NCBI GenBank assembly: GCA_040222275.1
Contig: JAVKDJ010000013.1
Coordinates: forward strand, 176,504 to 240,503
DNA from: Cyclobacteriaceae bacterium
GTDB taxonomy: Bacteria; Bacteroidota; Bacteroidia; Cytophagales; Cyclobacteriaceae
Length of the DNA: 64,000 bases
Direction of reading: 5' to 3'
Part shown: in pieces, positions 55,212-64,000 of the stretch
Layout: each line of letters begins with the position of its first letter
Numbering within the stretch: position 1 is the first letter of the stretch
Made by a program: the position numbers and the translations under genes
The notes under the pieces: generated by a model
Databases searched by the model: none
What the model was told of the DNA's origin: nothing
What the model saw: the letters and a program-made list of their open reading frames with translations, nothing else

Positions 55212-55281
55212 TAAGTGATTTTTATCCCCTATCCGCTATAAGGCCGCTTTTTCAATTTACGCCTTTACGCTCTTATATTTG
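55212..55281 (+). promoter_or_regulatory. ECF sigma gene promoter with candidate NarL-type site
   Basis: TAAGTGA-N6-TCCCCTA imperfect inverted repeat at 55212-55231; -7 box TATATTTG at 55274-55281. Confidence 0.45.
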
Positions 55282-55332
55282 GCAGGTATTCCACCCAATT
55301 TAGCATCGTCAAAATTTATCTTTTACTTACTG

Positions 55333-55908
55333 ATGAAGCCAAAAAAGCAAAACCAAACAACGGACGAACAACTGATCAAACAATTTCAACAAGGCGACCA
55401 ATTGGCCATGGGGGAGCTGTATTCACGCTACTATATGCTGGTGTTTGCCAAAAGTTTGTCTTTTGTAAAAAACACGGATGATGCCGCCGACCTGGCCCAG
55501 GACATTATGTTGCGGGTGATGGAAAAGGCAGGGACATTTAAGCAGGAATCAAAGTTTTCTACCTGGTTGTATGCCATTACTTTCAACTATTGCACCGATA
55601 GGGTAAGAAAAAACAAAAACAGGTATTATGAGTATATGGACGTCCTCGATTCCCATATCGATCACAGCACCGAAGATCAGGATTTGGTTTTTGAAAATGA
55701 AACCAAAGAAAAAGTGGCGGAGGAAGCCCTGATGGCTATATCGCGCGAAGACCATGAATTGTTGCTGATGAAATACCAACTCAACAAATCGATCCATGAA
55801 CTACAGTCCATCTACAACCTTTCTGCCAGTGCTGTGAAAATGCGCCTGATGAGGGCCCGGGAGAAGGCTGCCACCATTTACAACGCATATTCACTGGGAG
55901 CAGCCTGA
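55333..55908 (+). CDS. ECF sigma factor
   Basis: DAADLAQD, FSTWLYAIT region 2; SAVKMRLMRAR region 4. Confidence 0.92.
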   Translation: MKPKKQNQTTDEQLIKQFQQGDQLAMGELYSRYYMLVFAKSLSFVKNTDDAADLAQDIMLRVMEKAGTFKQESKFSTWLYAITFNYCTDRVRKNKNRYYEYMDVLDSHIDHSTEDQDLVFENETKEKVAEEALMAISREDHELLLMKYQLNKSIHELQSIYNLSASAVKMRLMRAREKAATIYNAYSLGAA

Positions 55909-55958
55909 TATACGAACATACCGCATACCGCAGCTTCACTGGATATTTCATTTAGTCA

Positions 55959-55984
55959 TGTGACCGGTTGAATTATTTACGTCT
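55959..55984 (+). promoter_or_regulatory. ECF-type promoter motif
   Basis: TGTGACC-N15-GTCT, 29 nt before the ATG at 56013. Confidence 0.6.
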
Positions 55985-56012
55985 AAATGTTTAAATTTAA
56001 AACTAACAAAAA

Positions 56013-56495
56013 ATGAAAAGTATTTTTTCTATCCTAATGTTACTCGGAGTAGTGGCATACGGAGCAAATGAGGGAGCACCGAAAGTAGTTTCAAAAGCAT
56101 TTTCAACCAAGTACAAAGGAGCAGAAAATGTCTATTGGGTAGTTGAACAGGGCAATCATCAGGTATCATTTGAGCATGAAAATTTCACAAAAGAGGCGAC
56201 CTTTAAAAAGGACGGAACATGGGTGATGACAGTGACCACATTGGACACGGAAGATTTGATGACCTGTATCAATGATGTGCTCAACGATGACTATTTTGGC
56301 CCTGTAGTATTGGATGCAGAATTTGTGGAAAAACCGGATTCGGAGAAATACTACATTACCATAGAAGATGCCGAAGAATTTGTAGAAGATGAAGAGGGTG
56401 ACGAAGAAGGTGTCGAGGAAGAAATCTCATACATCCGACTGGTATTCGCCTCAGACTGTGAATTCCTTGGTGAAGAGCAACTTGCAGATAATTAA
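56013..56495 (+). CDS. Secreted, highly acidic PepSY-like (BLIP-like) protein
   Basis: Signal peptide, APKVVSKAFSTKY..W, EATFKKDGTWV; E/D-rich tail. Confidence 0.7.
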   Translation: MKSIFSILMLLGVVAYGANEGAPKVVSKAFSTKYKGAENVYWVVEQGNHQVSFEHENFTKEATFKKDGTWVMTVTTLDTEDLMTCINDVLNDDYFGPVVLDAEFVEKPDSEKYYITIEDAEEFVEDEEGDEEGVEEEISYIRLVFASDCEFLGEEQLADN

Positions 56496-56512: not shown

Positions 56513-57589
56513 ATGGACGAAAAAAAAGAGGACAAACCACAAAAAAACCAGGTAAGTCAAAATGCCATCTCACAGGAGTCTAAAAAACTCAGTGAGATGG
56601 TAAAAGACCAGAAACTCTCCCTGCTGGATAGGATTGAGTGCTACGAAGACATCATCAATATTGAAGTAGGGGATACCGCTTTATTGCGCGCCAGAAACAT
56701 AGAGCGCGAAGCAGGGGTGAGGCAACTCTTTATGAAATTCGAAGGGGGCAACCCCACCGGCACCCAAAAGGACCGCATAGCTTTCGCCCAATGCCATGAT
56801 GCCCTCCGGCGCGGATACGATACCATTACTGTAGCCACCTGTGGCAACTATGGTGCATCTGTGGCGCTGGCTGCCAGTCTGGCGGGTTTGCGTTGTATTA
56901 TTTTTATTCCGGAAAACTACCACACTCTTCGTGTGGTGGAAATGGAAAATGTAGGTAGCGAAGTACACCGGGTCAAGGGTTTGTATGAGGACAGTGTAAA
57001 CCATTCCAGTGAACAGGCCAGTATCAACCGGTGGTATGATGCCAACCCCGGAGCGGTCAATACCCCCTTGCAAATCATAGCCTATGCAGAAATTGCCAAT
57101 GAAATTTATGACCAACTAAGGGACGCCCCCAAGGTGGTGTCAGTGCCCGTTTCCAACGGTACTTTATTGGCTGGGGTCTATCGTGGGTTTGTAAGCCTGT
57201 ACAAAAGGGGCAAGACCTCAAGGGTGCCGCTTATGGTTGCTTCTTCTTCCACGAGGAAAAACCCTATCATCTATTCGTTCAAGAAAGGCCTGGACTACTG
57301 TGCCGACCTGGTACCGGAGAAAATAAAGGAAACTGCTGTGAACGAACCCCTGATCAACTGGCACAGCTTCGATGGCGAAGAGGCACTTTATGCCATAAGG
57401 GAATCCAAAGGTGGGGCATACAACATCAGCGATGAAAAAATGCTAAAGACATCAAAATTATTAAAGGAAAAAGAAGGACTACATGTGCTGCCAGCATCGG
57501 TGGCCGGGTTGGTGGCCCTGTTGGAAATGGACAAGGAGAAAGACCTGGAGCCAGACCGATATGTAGCGATTTTAACAAGCAGAAAATGA
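56513..57589 (+). CDS. Fold-type II PLP enzyme (threonine synthase-like)
   Basis: KFEGGNPTGTQKDR PLP lysine, TCGNYG, VPVSNG. Confidence 0.88.
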   Translation: MDEKKEDKPQKNQVSQNAISQESKKLSEMVKDQKLSLLDRIECYEDIINIEVGDTALLRARNIEREAGVRQLFMKFEGGNPTGTQKDRIAFAQCHDALRRGYDTITVATCGNYGASVALAASLAGLRCIIFIPENYHTLRVVEMENVGSEVHRVKGLYEDSVNHSSEQASINRWYDANPGAVNTPLQIIAYAEIANEIYDQLRDAPKVVSVPVSNGTLLAGVYRGFVSLYKRGKTSRVPLMVASSSTRKNPIIYSFKKGLDYCADLVPEKIKETAVNEPLINWHSFDGEEALYAIRESKGGAYNISDEKMLKTSKLLKEKEGLHVLPASVAGLVALLEMDKEKDLEPDRYVAILTSRK

Positions 57590-58644
57590 AAAAAACAATA
57601 GACGGCAAAGCAATAGTGTATTGCGAAGGTGCATTCAATACCCCCAATGGCAAAACAGCCCATGGGCTGGTAAGGTTTACCGAAAGATATGAGGTGATGG
57701 GGGTAATAGACCCCACCTACGCCGGGCAGGACGCCGGGGAAGTACTGGATGGTAAAAAGAATGGCATACCGGTTTTTTCAAGTTTTGCTGATGCCTGGAA
57801 AAACCTCACCGATATAAGGTGTTTTGTCATTGGCCTTGCACCCGATGGCGGGCGATTGCCTGCCCAGGCCCGTGCTGTTATACAAGAAGCGCTGGAAATG
57901 GGATTGAATGTTGATTCAGGTTTGCACGATTTTTTGTACAAAGATGAAAAGCTTGTGGCTTTGGCCAAAAAAAATGGTTGCAGAATCCGGGACATCAGGC
58001 GCACCCCGGAGCGCGACGAGCTTCATTTCTTTTCCGGGAAAATAGAAAAAGTGGACTGTTTGAAATTGGCCGTATTGGGCACGGATTCAGCTGTGGGCAA
58101 AAGGACTACAGCCTGGATTATTGTACATGGGTTAAGGCAGGGGGGCAGGAAAGCAGAGATGATCGGTACAGGCCAGACAGGCTGGATGCAGGGGGCAAAG
58201 TATTCCATGGTGATGGATTCACTGATCAACGATTTTGTGTCAGGGGAAATCGAACATGCCGTCTATGAAGCCTGGAAAAACGAATCCCCGGATGCCATAG
58301 TCATAGAGGGGCAGGGTAGCCTGATGAACCCAGCCTATCCCGGTGGGTTCGAAATACTGGCTGCCGGAAGGCCCGATTATGTCATTTTGCAGCACGCCCC
58401 CAGAAGGCTGGAATACGATGGCTTTCCGGGATACCCCATTCAGCCACTCAATGAACAAATAGCGGCCATAGAAATGATTTCTGGCAAAAAAGTATTGGCC
58501 ATTACCCTGAACCATGAAGGTATGGAAAAAAATGAGATCGAATGGGAATGTGATAAAATTACAGTGGACACTGGACTCCTGTGCACTGATGTATTACACG
58601 ACGGGCCGGGGAAACTTGTCGGATTGATAAAGAAATACCTGTGA
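57586..58644 (+). CDS. DUF1611 / DgcN-like D-glutamate N-acetyltransferase family
   Basis: GKTAHGL, NVDSGLH, GTDSAVGKRTT, TGQTG, IEGQGSL. Confidence 0.85.
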   Translation: MKKTIDGKAIVYCEGAFNTPNGKTAHGLVRFTERYEVMGVIDPTYAGQDAGEVLDGKKNGIPVFSSFADAWKNLTDIRCFVIGLAPDGGRLPAQARAVIQEALEMGLNVDSGLHDFLYKDEKLVALAKKNGCRIRDIRRTPERDELHFFSGKIEKVDCLKLAVLGTDSAVGKRTTAWIIVHGLRQGGRKAEMIGTGQTGWMQGAKYSMVMDSLINDFVSGEIEHAVYEAWKNESPDAIVIEGQGSLMNPAYPGGFEILAAGRPDYVILQHAPRRLEYDGFPGYPIQPLNEQIAAIEMISGKKVLAITLNHEGMEKNEIEWECDKITVDTGLLCTDVLHDGPGKLVGLIKKYL

Positions 58645-60995
58645 AAGCATCTGTAGATACCAAAGAAGGTATTGGCCTGAGGGAGTTTGTCACCTTCAGG
58701 CAATTGAAGGCAGGGCCGGTGGTACTGGAAGCCAAAAGGGTAAAGGTACCTTATACACTCACCATGCACGATGGAGCCACCGTATCCAATGAACTGATCT
58801 ACACCTATTCGGAAAAAGTATTTGACAAAAACCGGCAGGAAGATGTCAACCTCGCCTCTATGATGGGTGTGCAGGTGGCGATGAACTATGGCCTGTTTTG
58901 TGAGGAAATGGTTTTCGATGGGATTTTTGATGATGCCGATCAGCGTTTTATCCTCGACATGGTGGAGAACACCTCCAGGGAGATTTATGTCAATAAACTA
59001 TTGGTGCCCAATGAGTTTTTAAAACAGGGATATGAAAAAGTAAAGGTTGAAAAATTTAAAAGATATACTGCAGCAAAAATCTTTTTTACCAATACCGATT
59101 TTAAGGCTGAAGAAGATACCTGGAACCTCTCGCCAACAGGCAAGGAAGAATATGTAATATTGAGCAGCGGGGGCAAGGACAGCCTGCTGAGCTATGGTGT
59201 GATAAAAGACCTGGGGCATGGTGCCCACCCGGTTTTTATCAATGAGTCCGGGCGTCACTGGTTTACGGCTATCAATGCCTTCAAACACATGGAAGGGATA
59301 GAACCCAATACATCTCGGGTGTGGTGCAATAGCGACAGGGTTTTCAACTGGATGCTGCGCCAGATGCCGTTCATTCGGGAAAATTTCGCCGATATCCGGG
59401 CAGATATTTATCCCATCAGGCTTTGGACTGTGGCCGTTTTCCTGTTTGGTGTATTGCCTATTGCACGAAAAAGAAAAGTGGGCAACATCCTTATTGGGGA
59501 TGAGTACGATACTACACTCAAACTCAACCATGAGGGCATCACCCACTATGGAGGGCTGTACGACCAGAGCAAGTATTTTGACAATGCCCTTACCCGTTAC
59601 TATATGAAAAAAGGGTGGGGCATCCATCAGTTTTCCATACTAAGGAGCCTCTCCGAATTGCTGATCCTTAAAATCCTGGTAAAAAGGTACCCTGACCTGC
59701 AGGCCCAGCAGGTATCGTGCCATGCAGCCCATGAGAAAAACGGCAGGATATACCCATGTGGCAATTGTGAAAAATGCAGGCGGATTGTAGGGATGCTTTC
59801 AGTTTTGGGTGAAGACCCCCGAAACTGTGGGTATTCCGACGAACAAATAGCCAGGGCTTTCAAGTCGCTGGAAGCCAAAAAAGTGAAACAAATCGGACAG
59901 GATGCGGCACACCTTTTTCACTTGTTGTTGGAAAAAGGCTTGGTGGAAAACAACGAGCACACCCGAAAACTGGCAAAGCCACATGAGCAAATATTGAAAC
60001 TGCGCTTCGATAATGAGCGCAGTATGATGGCGGATTTGCCCACAGGGATCAGAAAGCCACTGTTTGAGCTATTTCTCCATTATAGCAATGGGGCCGTAAA
60101 GCTAAAAGACCGAAAATGGGAAGATGTGGACCCTTTTCAAAATGGCCTGATCAATGCAACCTACCCTTTTGAAATAAAAAGGACAAACCCAAAAACGATG
60201 AATTCTTCAAATGTCAACAACTACCACTGGGAATCGCTCACCTGGAAGGAACTGGAAGAGCGCCTGAAAATTGTGGATACGGCCATCCTGCCTTGTGGGG
60301 CTATAGAGCAGCATGGGCCACACCTGCCTGTGGATATAGATTATTTCGATGCTGTCTATCTGGCCAACAAGGTGGTGGAGGCATGTAGCGACCCCAAGCC
60401 CTTTGTATTGCCACCGATCCCCTATGGTGTGTCTTATCATCATGAGGAATTTAAAGGTACCCTGAGTGTGACCAACGATGCACTCTCAAGGTTTGTTTAT
60501 GACATTGGCATGGGGCTGGCAAAAAACGGTATCAAAAAATTGATCATACTCAATGGCCATGGTGACAATGCACCGACACTGAGTTATGCAGCACAAATGA
60601 TCAATAGGGATGCAGAGATTTTCGTATGTGTCGATACCGGCGAAACCAGTGATATCGACCTCAATGATTTGATCGAAACCCCCAACGACATCCATGCCGG
60701 GGAGATTGAGACCAGTACTACATTGGCCATCAGGCCCGAAGTAGTGCAAATGGACAAGGCGGTAAATGAAACCCTCAATTTCGGCAGCAAATACCTTGAT
60801 TATACTTCCGACAGGGGAGTGGCCTGGTATGTCCGCACCAAAAGGATTTCAGCCAGCGGGGTAATGGGAGACCCTACCAAAGCCACGGAACAAAAAGGCA
60901 AAAAGATGTGGGAGATAATGGTGGCACACCTCGTCAAGTTTGTTGAGGAAGTGAAAAAAAGCAAGCTGGAGGATTTGTATCAAAGAAAATACTAA
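58641..60995 (+). CDS. Fusion: QueC/MurL-like PP-loop ATPase + creatininase-family amidohydrolase
   Basis: SSGGKDS; SC-x12-CGNCEKC; then EQHGPHLP, YGVSYHH, NGHGDN, HAGEIETS. Confidence 0.8.
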   Translation: MKASVDTKEGIGLREFVTFRQLKAGPVVLEAKRVKVPYTLTMHDGATVSNELIYTYSEKVFDKNRQEDVNLASMMGVQVAMNYGLFCEEMVFDGIFDDADQRFILDMVENTSREIYVNKLLVPNEFLKQGYEKVKVEKFKRYTAAKIFFTNTDFKAEEDTWNLSPTGKEEYVILSSGGKDSLLSYGVIKDLGHGAHPVFINESGRHWFTAINAFKHMEGIEPNTSRVWCNSDRVFNWMLRQMPFIRENFADIRADIYPIRLWTVAVFLFGVLPIARKRKVGNILIGDEYDTTLKLNHEGITHYGGLYDQSKYFDNALTRYYMKKGWGIHQFSILRSLSELLILKILVKRYPDLQAQQVSCHAAHEKNGRIYPCGNCEKCRRIVGMLSVLGEDPRNCGYSDEQIARAFKSLEAKKVKQIGQDAAHLFHLLLEKGLVENNEHTRKLAKPHEQILKLRFDNERSMMADLPTGIRKPLFELFLHYSNGAVKLKDRKWEDVDPFQNGLINATYPFEIKRTNPKTMNSSNVNNYHWESLTWKELEERLKIVDTAILPCGAIEQHGPHLPVDIDYFDAVYLANKVVEACSDPKPFVLPPIPYGVSYHHEEFKGTLSVTNDALSRFVYDIGMGLAKNGIKKLIILNGHGDNAPTLSYAAQMINRDAEIFVCVDTGETSDIDLNDLIETPNDIHAGEIETSTTLAIRPEVVQMDKAVNETLNFGSKYLDYTSDRGVAWYVRTKRISASGVMGDPTKATEQKGKKMWEIMVAHLVKFVEEVKKSKLEDLYQRKY

Positions 60996-60996
60996 G

Positions 60997-62058
60997 ATGA
61001 AAATCGTTTCTGCCGAATGCTGGTGTGAAAACCTGCGCCTGATGGAGCCTTATACCATCGCCTACGAATCCATTGATGAGGCCAGCAATGTATTTATAAA
61101 AATCAATACGGACCAGGGGCATATTGGCTGGGGCTGTGCTGCCCCAGATCTGGAAGTGACCGGCGAAACTGGCGAAACGGTGCTCAATGCTTTCAAAAAG
61201 GTAATAGAACCGTTTCTGACAGGAAGGGATCCTTTCCATTATGCCCGTATTTTAGAAGAACTTAAAAAACTCTTAAAAAATCAACCATCAGCCTTGGCGA
61301 TGGTGGACACCGCCCTGTTCGACCTGATCGGAAAAAAGGCCCAGGAGCCGGTGTACCGATTGCTCGGTGGCTATAGGGCAAGCATTCCCACAAGCGTGAC
61401 CATCGGGATACTTCCACTGGCGGAAACCCTGGAAAAAGCCCGCGACTTTATGGCCCAGGGGTTTACCATCCTCAAAGTAAAGGGGGGCAAAAGCATGGAA
61501 GAAGATGTGGAGCGTGTTATACGGTTGAGGGAAATGCTTGGCAAGGGCGTGGAATTGCGCTTTGATGCCAATCAGGGCTTCACGGTAGCCCAGTCCGTTG
61601 CGTTTATCGAGCAAACCAAACACATCCATATAGAATTGCTCGAACAACCCACACAAAAGGAAAATGCCGACCTGTTGAAGCAGGTAAGCAACCAGGTACC
61701 TGTACCTGTAATGGCAGACGAAAGCATCATGACATTGAAAGATGTATTTCACCTCACCCGCCACAATTGTACAGATATGATCAATATCAAACTGATGAAA
61801 GTCGGGGGGATTGCTGAGGCACTTCGGATCAATGCCGTGGCAATGGCTGCCAATGTGGAAACCATGGTGGGTTGCATGGACGAATCTGCCATGGGGATAG
61901 CCGCAGGTTTACATTTTGCATTGGCCCGTCCCAACATCCTATACGCAGACCTTGACGGGCATTTCGACCTCCTTGATGACCCCTTTGCTACAATGATCCG
62001 ATGTGAAAAGGGTGTACTCTACCCATCTGAGGCACCAGGGTTTGGGTGGAAAAAATAA
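60997..62058 (+). CDS. Enolase-superfamily dipeptide epimerase / DgcA-like racemase
   Basis: KVKGG, FDANQG, EQP, DES, NIKLMKVGG, DLDG. Confidence 0.9.
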   Translation: MKIVSAECWCENLRLMEPYTIAYESIDEASNVFIKINTDQGHIGWGCAAPDLEVTGETGETVLNAFKKVIEPFLTGRDPFHYARILEELKKLLKNQPSALAMVDTALFDLIGKKAQEPVYRLLGGYRASIPTSVTIGILPLAETLEKARDFMAQGFTILKVKGGKSMEEDVERVIRLREMLGKGVELRFDANQGFTVAQSVAFIEQTKHIHIELLEQPTQKENADLLKQVSNQVPVPVMADESIMTLKDVFHLTRHNCTDMINIKLMKVGGIAEALRINAVAMAANVETMVGCMDESAMGIAAGLHFALARPNILYADLDGHFDLLDDPFATMIRCEKGVLYPSEAPGFGWKK

Positions 62059-62318: not shown

Positions 62319-63011
62319 ATGAAGCTGAAATTTGAAGTACATGTGCGCTCAGTTTTGGAAATTCAGGAGTTGCCGGATGCATGGACCAGCGAAGATTACA
62401 AAAACCTGCTCGAACTGGCCGACTTTGAAGACTGGGACGAAATAGACGAATCGGAGTTGAAGGATTATACTGTCATGGCCTTGCAGGACCTGGAAGAGGA
62501 GGAAGCCGCAACCATTGTGCTCGGCTATAAGTTTCAGGGCCGGCTCACTAAAGGGCAAATACAAAGCATAGTATATGACATGATGGAAGTAAACATCTGG
62601 GAAGAATACCAGAATATTGGCTTTCACCAGGATTTGTACAACTGTGCCGTGTTGCTTCGGTCGGTTTTTCCAAAGAAATTCCCAGAAACAGATGCAGTAA
62701 AATGTGTGGTGGCAGTTGATCCACTCGATCAGGCAGCAGAAAAGGCTTTGCTACAACCAGACAAAACCCTGCTTGTGCGGTTGCTGGCTGATGGTATGAC
62801 CGATCATGCCGTCATCAAGCGTTTGTTTGACGATCAACTGGCGGGAGGTGCTTTTCCTGAAGCCGAACATATTATATGGCATTTTGATAGTGAATTTCTG
62901 GGAAAGAAAGCGATTTTTACTATCTTTTCTTCATGGTATTGGCTAAGGCCATTGGACGAAGTATCAAACTATACATCTGGGGCAAACGCAAGCCCAACAA
63001 AAACAGGATAA
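62319..63011 (+). CDS. Conserved hypothetical acidic protein
   Basis: 230-aa ORF with normal codon usage; no family recognised. Confidence 0.65.
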   Translation: MKLKFEVHVRSVLEIQELPDAWTSEDYKNLLELADFEDWDEIDESELKDYTVMALQDLEEEEAATIVLGYKFQGRLTKGQIQSIVYDMMEVNIWEEYQNIGFHQDLYNCAVLLRSVFPKKFPETDAVKCVVAVDPLDQAAEKALLQPDKTLLVRLLADGMTDHAVIKRLFDDQLAGGAFPEAEHIIWHFDSEFLGKKAIFTIFSSWYWLRPLDEVSNYTSGANASPTKTG

Positions 63012-63036
63012 ATTGGAATTAGAACCGAGCTACGCA

Positions 63037-64000
63037 ATGGATGGATTTAAAATTGGCCTCACGGTCATTTTTATTATCCTGAATGGTTTTTTTGTAGCTG
63101 CAGAGTTTGCACTGGTAAAGATCAGCAAGAGCAAACTAAAGGTAATGATGAATGAGGGCAGGCCATTTGCCGTCACCGCCATGTGGCTTTTTAAAAGGCA
63201 AAACCTGGCCCTATCCGCTTGTCAGTTGGGTATTACCATGGCTTCCCTGGCACTTGGCTGGATAGGCGAGCCGGCCATTGCACATTTGATTACCCCAGTT
63301 ATTTATGATATGGGCATCACCTCTGAGGGGCTCATCCACGGTATTGCTTTCACCATCGCCTTTACCCTCATTACTGCATTTCATATCGTTATAGGTGAGC
63401 AGGTGCCCAAGATTTATGCCATTAGAAAACCAGGAATCGTGTTTTTGGGCTGTGCCTGGCTACTAAAAGGATTTTATGTGGTACTCTACCCATTTATGTA
63501 TGTACTCAATTCTATTACCAACGTTTTTTTGAAATGGCTGGGAATAGAAGATTCTGACGAGCACGACACACCGTTGACCGAAGAAGAAATCAGGGCTTCC
63601 CTGAGCATTGCCCACGCTAAAGGGGAACTATCCAAAAACGAGCATAAGCTGTTAAATGCCGTATTCAGGTTCGATGACGAAGTGGCACGACAGATCATGG
63701 AGCCGCGGAGCGAGGTGGAATACATGGACATCAACCGTTCATTCGCTGACAACCTCGAGTTCGCCAGGCAGTCCAAGCATACCAGGTTTCCCCTGTGCGA
63801 AGGCTCGTTGGACAAATTGCTGGGCGTAGTGCATATCAAGGACATCATTGGTTACGATGCAGACGATCATGTGGATTTGAGCACTTTTGTCCGTCAGCCG
63901 ATGCTCATTCCGGAAAACATCCTGATAGGCCGGCTGCTCCAGGAGTTTAGGCTGGCCAGGCAACATTTTGCCTTTGTGCAGGACGAGCATGGTACCATTC
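63037..64000 (+). CDS. CNNM/HlyC-CorC family (DUF21-CBS) protein, truncated by the window end
   Basis: NGFFVAAEFALV, CQLGITMASLALGWIGEP, GEQVPK, HTRFPLC, QDEHG; absent from the ORF track because no stop is in the window. Confidence 0.9.
   Translation, partial: MDGFKIGLTVIFIILNGFFVAAEFALVKISKSKLKVMMNEGRPFAVTAMWLFKRQNLALSACQLGITMASLALGWIGEPAIAHLITPVIYDMGITSEGLIHGIAFTIAFTLITAFHIVIGEQVPKIYAIRKPGIVFLGCAWLLKGFYVVLYPFMYVLNSITNVFLKWLGIEDSDEHDTPLTEEEIRASLSIAHAKGELSKNEHKLLNAVFRFDDEVARQIMEPRSEVEYMDINRSFADNLEFARQSKHTRFPLCEGSLDKLLGVVHIKDIIGYDADDHVDLSTFVRQPMLIPENILIGRLLQEFRLARQHFAFVQDEHGTI

Follow-up and report, generated by a model that had tools for sequence, protein, structure and literature searches.

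In a 64 000-nucleotide (nt) stretch of contig JAVKDJ010000013.1 from a Cyclobacteriaceae bacterium (hereafter the window), one open reading frame (ORF) of 784 amino acids (aa) joins a MurL/QueC-like PP-loop enzyme to a creatininase-family hydrolase. This ORF encodes a true two-domain enzyme, an uncharacterised variant of the PP-loop adenylating enzymes that works in an orphan pathway. The identities of its two domains, their catalytic motifs, the recurrence of the fusion and the gene cassette that carries it, together with the variants of that cassette, are directly observed.

The fusion recurs well beyond this assembly. A search of 5.8 billion proteins with aa 1–520 as the query returned many fused relatives of 770–787 aa with the same two-domain layout and 60–98% identity, from Reichenbachiella, Flexithrix, Saprospiraceae and metagenomes, as well as many stand-alone relatives of ~500 aa, mainly from Flavobacteriaceae; in Maribacter, a 501-aa PP-loop gene is directly followed by a 266-aa creatininase gene. 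Scanning one genome per species, we found relatives of the PP-loop protein in at least 590 genomes, and locus counts out of 80 below refer to the best 80 species-level loci among these. The two genes are fused in 19 loci, split but adjacent in 57 and cut by contig ends in five, and a creatininase is fused or adjacent to the PP-loop gene in 78. Where split, they overlap or abut at the position that matches the linker of the fusion. A maximum-likelihood tree of the PP-loop part places the fused forms in one clade (support 100/97; 19 fused, two split and one unresolved), which fits a single fusion event with a few reversals. The initial annotation had allowed that a lost stop codon, unique to this assembly, might have joined two genes, and most relatives do have two separate genes (57 of 76), but 19 independent species-level fused loci in that one clade and the many metagenomic fused proteins already refute an assembly or sequencing artefact, whose remaining probability is negligible.

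Further fusions suggest a functional linkage with the PP-loop domain. Two distant homologues (P0154 and P0165, 27–32% identity) are likewise fused to a creatininase, while another carries DUF1611 at its N end (P0126) and a fourth a methyltransferase at its C end (P0124). Because the tree intermixes Cytophagales, Saprospiraceae, Bacteroidales and Calditrichota, the cassette moves horizontally. A 2.5-kb contig labelled uncultured Thalassobius (Pseudomonadota; L051) is probably mis-binned; on the tree, its PP-loop gene and the Lewinella one (Bacteroidota) fall together with support 100/95.

The N-terminal part carries both motifs ascribed to it at the outset, SSGGKDS at aa 175–181 and a four-Cys motif at C360, C373, C376 and C379, and its length, put at ~520 aa, is close to that of the folded portion, which ends near aa 513 and is followed by predicted disorder over aa 514–525. 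No Pfam family matches within aa 1–520. An exhaustive HMMER search of 1.84 billion representatives gathered only 407 proteins at E ≤ 1e-3, and the PP-loop family is therefore small and distinct. Conserved positions in a 34-sequence alignment of this family (A1) comprise S176, G177, G178, K179 and S181; E202, S203, G204, H206 and W207; D232 and R233; G286, E288 and D290; H302; D308 and Q309; S332; and, around the Cys motif, S359, C360, H361, C373, G374, C376, K378 and C379, with the four cysteines invariant or nearly so. For the AlphaFold2 model of aa 1–520 built on A1 (predicted local distance difference test, pLDDT, 93.4; predicted template modelling score, pTM, 0.92), the top Foldseek match in the PDB was QatC (9y02_B, E 2.7e-6), followed by QueC (2pg3 and 3bl5), Cap9 (9nto_B) and MJ0690, and then by PP-loop sulfurtransferases. 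Template modelling (TM) scores on the target were 0.69–0.74 for the two QueC structures and 0.69 for Cap9, so that the model supports a QueC-like fold. A profile search of the PDB gave only PP-loop-level matches, aligning the PP-loop to those of TtuA, MJ0690 and MnmA. Together, the SGGKDS motif (aa 176–181) and the modelled fold place the N-terminal part in the PP-loop ATP pyrophosphatase superfamily.

Within this superfamily, however, the PP-loop protein is a member of neither named family, QueC nor MurL. QueC is defined by SGGxDS and a zinc motif, C(x)8CxxCxxC (PMC13329287), and forms a carboxyl adenylate, which is open to attack by ammonia; QatC and Cap9 modify protein N-termini on the same scaffold, and all three are carboxylate-adenylating, amide-forming enzymes (PMC13329287; PMC13279940). 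In contrast, the spacing after the first cysteine is 12 in our family (C(x)12CxxCxxC, invariant, with zinc as the putative metal) against 8 in QueC, the N-terminal part does not match the QueC family PF06508 even at E ≤ 10, and the fusion gene has neither que genes (queD, queE, queF) nor defence partners (QatABD, CdnD/Cap10) beside it, its neighbours encoding a pyridoxal phosphate (PLP) enzyme, a DUF1611 protein and an epimerase. MurL, creatininase and DUF1611 go unmentioned in a 2026 survey of the QueC family (PMC13329287), and in the library searched we found no paper that joins DUF1611 with creatininase or MurL with QueC, or that deals with the cassette.

Against the MurL model NF041275, the fusion protein scores 14.5 bits (E 0.009; cut-off 700), and 22 of the 34 family members match it at E ≤ 1, the best being P0228 (E 7e-10 over MurL positions 130–354, i.e. 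225 positions) and another P0272 (E 4e-7). These scores indicate that the homology to MurL is distant but real, and with a QueC fold and detectable MurL homology the original label of a ‘QueC/MurL-like adenylating domain’ is a fair one. The accompanying statement that MurL adenylates its substrate went too far in calling this established: MurL lacks known conserved domains, its mechanism is unclear and adenylation is a published hypothesis (PMC8788868). The MurL model found no match at E ≤ 1 in the genome of the fusion and none in 401 genomes sampled around a metagenome-assembled genome (MAG) labelled Pseudomonadota, and a word-based search with P0228 returned six proteins, none of them named MurL. 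A role of the operon in supplying D-Glu to the cell wall was rejected because the genome has MurI (contig C99; 198 bits, above its cut-off).

Some members of the family stand apart. The gene for P0272, whose subfamily is the one nearest to MurL by HMM, lies amid ~25 small same-strand ORFs that lack Pfam matches, a layout like that of a phage or mobile element (contig L092). P0143 (L095) and P0222 (L094) have degenerate PP-loops, VESGTNDLL and LNAAPEAVL in place of SSGGKDSLL, and may be pseudo-enzymes; the P0143 gene follows a RimB-like gene. The gene contexts of the divergent P0165, P0222 and P0143 were uninformative.

The C-terminal part is, as first described, a complete creatininase domain joined in the same frame: Pfam Creatininase (PF02633) matches aa 532–768 over model positions 2–238 of 238 (226.9 bits, cut-off 31.3; E 3.1e-67), and creatinine amidohydrolase structures match with TM scores of 0.77–0.79 (E ~1e-14). 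A phmmer alignment equates creatininase E34, H36, D45, H120, E122, H178 and E183 with E556, H558, D567, H640, D642, H685 and E690, respectively, each at least 90% conserved among 37 fused proteins. We take E34, H36, D45, H120 and E183 to be the binuclear metal ligands, and H178 the catalytic His, of the Pseudomonas putida creatininase. By its residues, the C-terminal part thus looks like an active, catalytically complete amidohydrolase. Its scores fall below the equivalog cut-offs for creatininase (TIGR04448, 102.9 vs 235), MftE (TIGR03964, 142.2 vs 172) and IolN (88 vs 245), and its substrate should therefore be a different one. In a full-length AlphaFold model built on the 37 fused sequences, two well-folded domains are separated by a disordered linker (aa 514–525), with a pTM of 0.66.

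The fusion gene is the third of four closely packed genes (Table 1). Its start codon (GTG) and the stop codon (TGA) of the DUF1611 gene overlap, the two genes sharing 4 nt (ctGTGAaa), a single nt separates its TAA stop from the ATG of the epimerase gene, and the PLP and DUF1611 genes overlap by 4 nt; the four genes, at 56513–62058, are therefore a translationally coupled operon.

Table 1. Features of the fusion gene and its neighbours, in positions of the window.
Feature	Positions	Strand	Basis or remark
Fusion ORF, 784 aa: MurL/QueC-like PP-loop enzyme plus creatininase-family hydrolase	58641..60995	+	One open frame; Pfam; protein searches
N-terminal alpha/beta domain, aa 1–165, family-specific	58641..59135	+	AlphaFold pLDDT >90; no Pfam match
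QueC-like PP-loop ATP-pyrophosphatase core, ~aa 166–390	59136..59810	+	Foldseek; PDB profile matches
PP-loop motif SSGGKDS, aa 175–181	59163..59183	+	S176, G177, G178, K179 and S181 at least 90% conserved
Four-Cys motif C360(x)12C373xxC376xxC379, putative QueC-like Zn site	59718..59777	+	Invariant Cys; alignment
C-terminal helical domain of the PP-loop enzyme, aa 391–513	59811..60179	+	AlphaFold models
Flexible linker, aa 514–531	60180..60233	+	pLDDT <50 for aa 514–525; gene boundary in split genomes
Creatininase-family metallo-amidohydrolase domain, aa 532–768	60234..60944	+	Pfam; alignment; Foldseek
Fold-type II PLP enzyme, PRK06381 type, ThrC-like; first cassette gene	56513..57589	+	
DUF1611 protein, DgcN-like, dethiobiotin-synthetase-type P-loop GTDSAVGKRT	57586..58644	+	
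Enolase-superfamily dipeptide epimerase, invariant Glu24 and DxD motif	60997..62058	+	
Extracytoplasmic function (ECF) sigma factor and secreted PepSY-like protein, directly upstream of the PLP gene	55279..56495	+	17-nt gap to the PLP gene

This operon represents a cassette found in hundreds of bacteria, mostly marine. Its five functions follow the order PLP enzyme, DUF1611, PP-loop, creatininase and enolase-type epimerase, all five being present in 63 of the 80 loci, and the loci without the full set are mostly cut by contig ends. Median identities to the genes of the window are, in the same order, 65, 72, 63, 74 and 55%, and DUF1611 lies directly upstream of the PP-loop gene even in relatives of 32–49% identity. 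The distribution is patchy, with the cassette in seven out of 401 sampled Bacteroidota species and in none of 12 other genomes from the family to which the window belongs. De novo clustering of all flanking ORFs in the 80 loci revealed no other universally linked gene, and a conserved transporter or regulator was accordingly rejected as a clue to the substrate.

The epimerase is dispensable to the cassette. Flexithrix and some others have no epimerase beside it but paralogues elsewhere that are 37–40% identical, often paired with a second DUF1611 (40–41% identity). Such adjacent DUF1611 and dipeptide-epimerase-like genes occur at G407:C71:149942-152152 and G408:C1:250686-252949, where the cassette lacks a DUF1611 and epimerase of its own; such a separate pair suggests a stand-alone module like DgcN/DgcA. 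Because the epimerase and DUF1611 can sit apart from the PP-loop and creatininase genes, the cassette looks modular, with one module of DUF1611 and epimerase, one of PP-loop enzyme and creatininase, and the PLP enzyme in addition.

More distant relatives show which partners persist. The archaeal-type set consists of the locus of P0276 (L093, from a Thorarchaeota MAG) and 80 sediment-metagenome contigs (L096–L175), 81 loci in all, whose PP-loop proteins are 48–81% identical to P0276. By hhalign, P0276 aligns with A1 over 330 columns (probability 99.1%, E 1e-18), and these relatives keep SFGKDS, YDQS and C(x)12CxxCxxC, with the same Cys spacing in 78. The P0276 gene is followed by a gene for a D-Ala-D-Ala-ligase (Ddl)-like ATP-grasp enzyme and one for a Gcn5-related N-acetyltransferase (GNAT), with a PLP enzyme alongside that matches PRK06381 above its cut-off (367 bits). 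Of the 81 loci, 75 have the Ddl-like gene next to the PP-loop gene, 59 a GNAT and 60 the PLP enzyme, which is 45–50% identical to the PLP enzyme of the window and lies on either side. None of the 81 holds DUF1611 or creatininase, and one has an enolase-superfamily match, a weak one at 24% identity. Judged from gene context, the constant partners of the PP-loop enzyme would thus be a PRK06381-type PLP enzyme and an amide-forming enzyme, the latter varying between MurD2 (for MurL), DUF1611 (in the cassette) and the Ddl-like ligase (in the archaeal-type loci). Since an amide-forming partner is constant across all three settings, this supports a product of amide ligation, i.e. a dipeptide or N-acyl amino acid, as the substrate of the PP-loop enzyme. 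This archaeal-type cluster itself also appears to be uncharacterised.

The partner enzymes in the window narrow the substrate further. The PLP enzyme matches PRK06381 (an equivalog named ‘threonine synthase’) at 423 bits, above the cut-off, and falls below the thrC threshold. We rejected a housekeeping role as ThrC, since the genome has a canonical thrC on contig C48 and the residues aligned to N154, S155 and R160 of ThrC, which bind phosphate in that enzyme, are G, A and Q. The DUF1611 protein weakly resembles DgcN (146.9 bits, cut-off 480), and its P-loop is, in our judgement, like those of dethiobiotin-synthetase-type ligases. DgcN is a DUF1611 N-acetyltransferase, which reportedly uses acetyl-CoA and not an adenylate, and DgcA is an enolase-superfamily N-acetyl-D-Glu racemase. 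The epimerase of the window scores 162.2 bits against the DgcA model (cut-off 400), and its nearest structures are the dipeptide epimerases 3JVA, 1TKK and 3RIT; it has the KxK and K catalytic lysines, the D/E/D metal ligands and the DxD motif. In YkfB, an L-Ala-D/L-Glu epimerase, Arg24 binds the side chain of the substrate Glu, and DxD is the ammonium-binding motif. Because Arg24 is replaced by Glu in 68 of 68 orthologues of our epimerase, in which D295 and E296 are also invariant, while DxD is kept, we predict that its substrate is a dipeptide whose N-terminal amine is free and which carries a cationic side chain.

We infer the class of substrate, the order of steps and the nucleophile as follows. 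Domain 1 (aa 1–513) would bind ATP at SGGKDS, hold a structural zinc on its four cysteines and adenylate a carboxylate on a small molecule derived from an amino acid. The likeliest such molecule is a dipeptide or N-acyl amino acid that bears a cationic side chain and is activated at its C-terminal carboxylate; DUF1611 would build it from an amino acid on which the PLP enzyme acts. Before the ATP-dependent reaction traps that residue, the configuration at the C terminus would be set by the enolase-type epimerase. A nitrogen nucleophile would then capture the adenylate to give a QueC-type amide or a lactam, rather than mere epimerisation. Domain 2 (aa 532–768), as a creatininase-type binuclear-metal amidohydrolase, would act on the same molecule, either (i) supplying the nitrogen by hydrolysing a donor amide, in the logic of an amidotransferase, or (ii) opening or cleaving the product of the first domain. 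We favour this scheme of carboxylate adenylation captured by a nitrogen nucleophile and coupled to amide hydrolysis, tentatively, as its chance falls somewhat short of even. The broader proposal made at the outset, that carboxyl activation is channelled to amide hydrolysis, seems reasonable. Adenylation of a carboxylate by the N-terminal domain would be common to the epimerisation, amide or lactam, acyl-donor and thiocarboxylate readings considered here.

Capture by nitrogen is preferred on three grounds: the structural relatives QueC, QatC and Cap9 perform such chemistry; the classic amidotransferase is built from a PP-loop synthetase with a hydrolase attached; and most cassettes hold a complete reversible epimerase, beside which an irreversible ATP-driven trap of one epimer is coherent. 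If a reversible epimerase and an ATP-driven one shared a dipeptide substrate, the two would run a futile cycle, which speaks against the PP-loop domain being simply a second epimerase.

Several points weigh on the other side. MurL, the one sequence relative that has been characterised, is an epimerase rather than an amide synthetase, and we know of no creatininase-family enzyme that donates ammonia. The futile-cycle argument is weakened by those cassettes from which the epimerase is absent. The full-length AlphaFold model, with its disordered linker and pTM of 0.66, predicts neither a fixed interface nor a channel linking the two domains, and the archaeal-type clusters have no hydrolase, so the hydrolase is not essential to the PP-loop chemistry; both facts count against tight channelling. 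Finally, all family members are known here from sequence and models.

The homology to MurL suggests a different outcome, which we consider possible though unlikely. In this alternative, DUF1611 N-acylates an L-amino acid or joins it by ligation; the PP-loop domain activates the alpha-carboxylate of the product as an adenylate and inverts it one-way, as has been proposed for MurL, possibly through an oxazolone; and the fused creatininase frees the D-form, either by hydrolysing the cyclic intermediate or by deacylation. MurL is the nearest characterised homologue by sequence, and the MurL gene follows that of the ligase MurD2 (PMC8788868), a ligase-then-MurL-like pattern that recurs with DUF1611 and with the Ddl-like ligase. 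The acylate, racemise and deacylate precedent of DgcN/DgcA likewise fits the weak matches to both models. Against such stereo-inversion stand the wide gap between the score of the fusion protein and the MurL cut-off, the MurI of the same genome and the complete reversible epimerase of most cassettes, which would undo an ATP-driven inversion.

Alternatively, and more doubtfully, the PP-loop domain may adenylate a carboxylic-acid ‘handle’, the acyl group of which DUF1611 transfers to the amine of a cationic amino acid, whereupon the enolase-type enzyme epimerises the conjugate and the creatininase cleaves it and returns the handle directly to the PP-loop domain, the net result being a racemisation paid for with ATP. 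Here one epimerase suffices, the fusions of DUF1611 and of creatininase to the PP-loop protein bracket the adenylating domain, and the two pairs of genes form separate modules in some genomes. However, the archaeal-type ATP-grasp ligase activates its own carboxylate, so that in those clusters the PP-loop enzyme cannot be needed merely to provide an acyl donor, and the acetyl-CoA reported for DgcN is likewise at odds with an adenylate.

Sulfur chemistry is improbable. Here, in the manner of CysM/CysO/Mec+ or LarE, the adenylate would be turned into a thiocarboxylate for beta-replacement by the fold-type II PLP enzyme, and the metallo-hydrolase would release the amino acid. The PLP and PP-loop enzymes are indeed a constant pair across bacteria and archaea, the PP-loop sulfurtransferases TtuA, NcsA, MnmA and LarE are among the structural neighbours, and many relatives come from sulfidic sediments, judged by contig names; but four cysteines with QueC-type spacing fit a structural zinc and leave no open Fe site, the clustering of flanking ORFs found no conserved sulfur-carrier or desulfurase gene, and many hosts are aerobic Flavobacteriaceae.

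Replacement of a missing QueC, with the PP-loop domain making preQ0, is very improbable: no canonical QueC (TIGR00364) is detectable in the 99%-complete genome (G000), the fusion is its only ORF with SGGxDS and CxxCxxC, and a QueD-like gene is present (C68:30268-30543), but the operon has an amino-acid/dipeptide context devoid of que genes, the fusion gene is missing from 12 other genomes of this family, Pfam QueC is not matched even at E 10, and the QueD-like gene adjoins two ORFs that we take, from their translations, to be nadA/nadB. The organism probably salvages 7-deazaguanines.

Several genes accompany the cassette without being universal to it. In the window, the ECF sigma and PepSY-like genes are probably co-transcribed with it. 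An ECF-type promoter-like site, GACCGG-N11-ACGTC, occurs once in the window (0.05 expected) at 55962–55983 (+), between the ECF sigma gene (55279–55908) and the PepSY-like gene (56013–56495). Of the 80 loci, 12 have an ECF sigma gene upstream of the cassette, no more than ~7 kb away, and another (L011) has one on the downstream side. Given this site upstream of the PepSY-like gene and the ECF genes near other loci, the cassette may respond to an extracytoplasmic signal.

After the operon, an ORF at 62319–63011 (+) encodes a 230-aa protein that has no Pfam or NCBIfam match and recurs directly downstream of the cassette in three other loci (L010, L046 and L065, with 40, 44 and 36% identity). It is followed at 63013–63999 by a gene that we took by eye, from its translation, to be CNNM/CorC-like, whose ORF runs past the end of the window and which has a similar counterpart at L010:2-967. 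In at least 10 loci, which come from several families of organisms, genes for Mg2+/cation transporters are found no more than a few kb from the cassette, including CorA (TIGR00383, 332 bits) in L009, L012, L025, L028, L034, L042, L080 and L082.

A four-gene module, absent from the genome of the window, travels with the cassette in 18 loci (for example L050:1849-9764; also L001, L020, L023, L026, L027, L031, L036, L038, L039, L041, L043, L056, L058, L062, L067, L076 and L079). It encodes a 966-aa protein with a phosphoenolpyruvate-synthase/PigC-like ATP-binding domain, a major facilitator superfamily transporter fused to HEAT repeats, and two secreted proteins of beta-lactamase fold whose SxxK, S(D/N)N and KSG motifs are intact. 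The module is placed upstream, downstream or, in Muriicola, between the DUF1611 and PP-loop genes.

To our knowledge, MurL is the only studied member of its branch of the superfamily, and its mechanism is open. Beside it, the PP-loop family forms a second and much larger branch, reaching the at least 590 species genomes counted above, plus a distinct archaeal-type branch, and the compact, self-contained operon is suited to direct expression and assay. Solving it would assign a function to DUF1611 outside the case of DgcN, explain a PLP ‘threonine synthase’ that passes the PRK06381 cut-off, misses that of thrC and lacks the ThrC phosphate-binding residues, and probably uncover a new reaction that modifies dipeptides or amino acids at the expense of ATP, together with a new small molecule, in marine and sediment microbes. 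More speculatively, and doubtful for now, the creatininase domain may be a nitrogen-donating or ring-processing partner of the PP-loop domain, defining a new class of amidotransferases or lactam-forming enzymes with a C-terminally amidated or cyclised dipeptide as product. If so, this dipeptide would contain a cationic, possibly D-configured, non-protein amino acid and could be an undescribed osmolyte or solute for cation homeostasis, while a lactam-type bioactive compound is possible in those Flavobacteriaceae that add two beta-lactamase-fold genes and an exporter.

Among known systems, MurL is the only characterised relative by sequence. The two proteins are of similar size, with extra N- and C-terminal parts around a nucleotide-binding core; both genes follow that of an amide-forming enzyme, and both proteins are presumed to activate a C-terminal carboxylate with ATP. 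They differ in that the fusion protein reaches 14.5 of the 700 bits required, its neighbour is DUF1611 instead of MurD2, it has no mur context, MurI is present in its genome, and its PP-loop part is paired with a creatininase, a PLP enzyme and an enolase-type epimerase. The best structural matches are instead QueC, QatC and Cap9 (PF06508), which share the SGGxDS PP-loop and a Cys4 motif ending in CxxCxxC; their ATP-dependent adenylation of a carboxylate, followed by attack of ammonia or an amine, is for the fusion a prediction. Unlike these enzymes, the fusion has a PP-loop core extended N-terminally by ~165 residues and C-terminally by ~120, and a Cys spacing of 12 instead of 8, and it lacks a PF06508 match and nearby 7-deazaguanine genes or defence partners. 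With the creatininase family (PF02633, including creatinine amidohydrolase, MftE, ArfB and IolN), it has in common a full-length domain, the fold, the metal ligands and the catalytic His, whereas Glu122 of creatininase is Asp in the fusion and a lid of ~30 residues (aa 712–741) is specific to the group.

The D-glutamate route of DgcN and DgcA also has DUF1611 and enolase-superfamily proteins acting together, and its logic of acylation followed by epimerisation may apply here. However, the genes of the window score far below the cut-offs (147 vs 480 and 162 vs 400), their epimerase looks like one of the dipeptide type with a cationic pocket, and three further enzymes are added. A last comparison is with the synthesis of N-acetylglutaminylglutamine amide (NAGGN), in which Ngg combines a GNAT with an ATP-grasp dipeptide ligase, and AsnO, a PP-loop amidotransferase, amidates the C-terminal carboxylate. 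NAGGN synthesis differs from our systems in that homology does not extend beyond the PP-loop superfamily, a glutaminase domain is missing from ours, and the PLP enzyme has no counterpart. Nevertheless, the archaeal-type cluster has the same combination of GNAT, ATP-grasp ligase and PP-loop enzyme, and the fusion, in joining a hydrolase to a PP-loop synthetase, follows the standard design of an amidotransferase.

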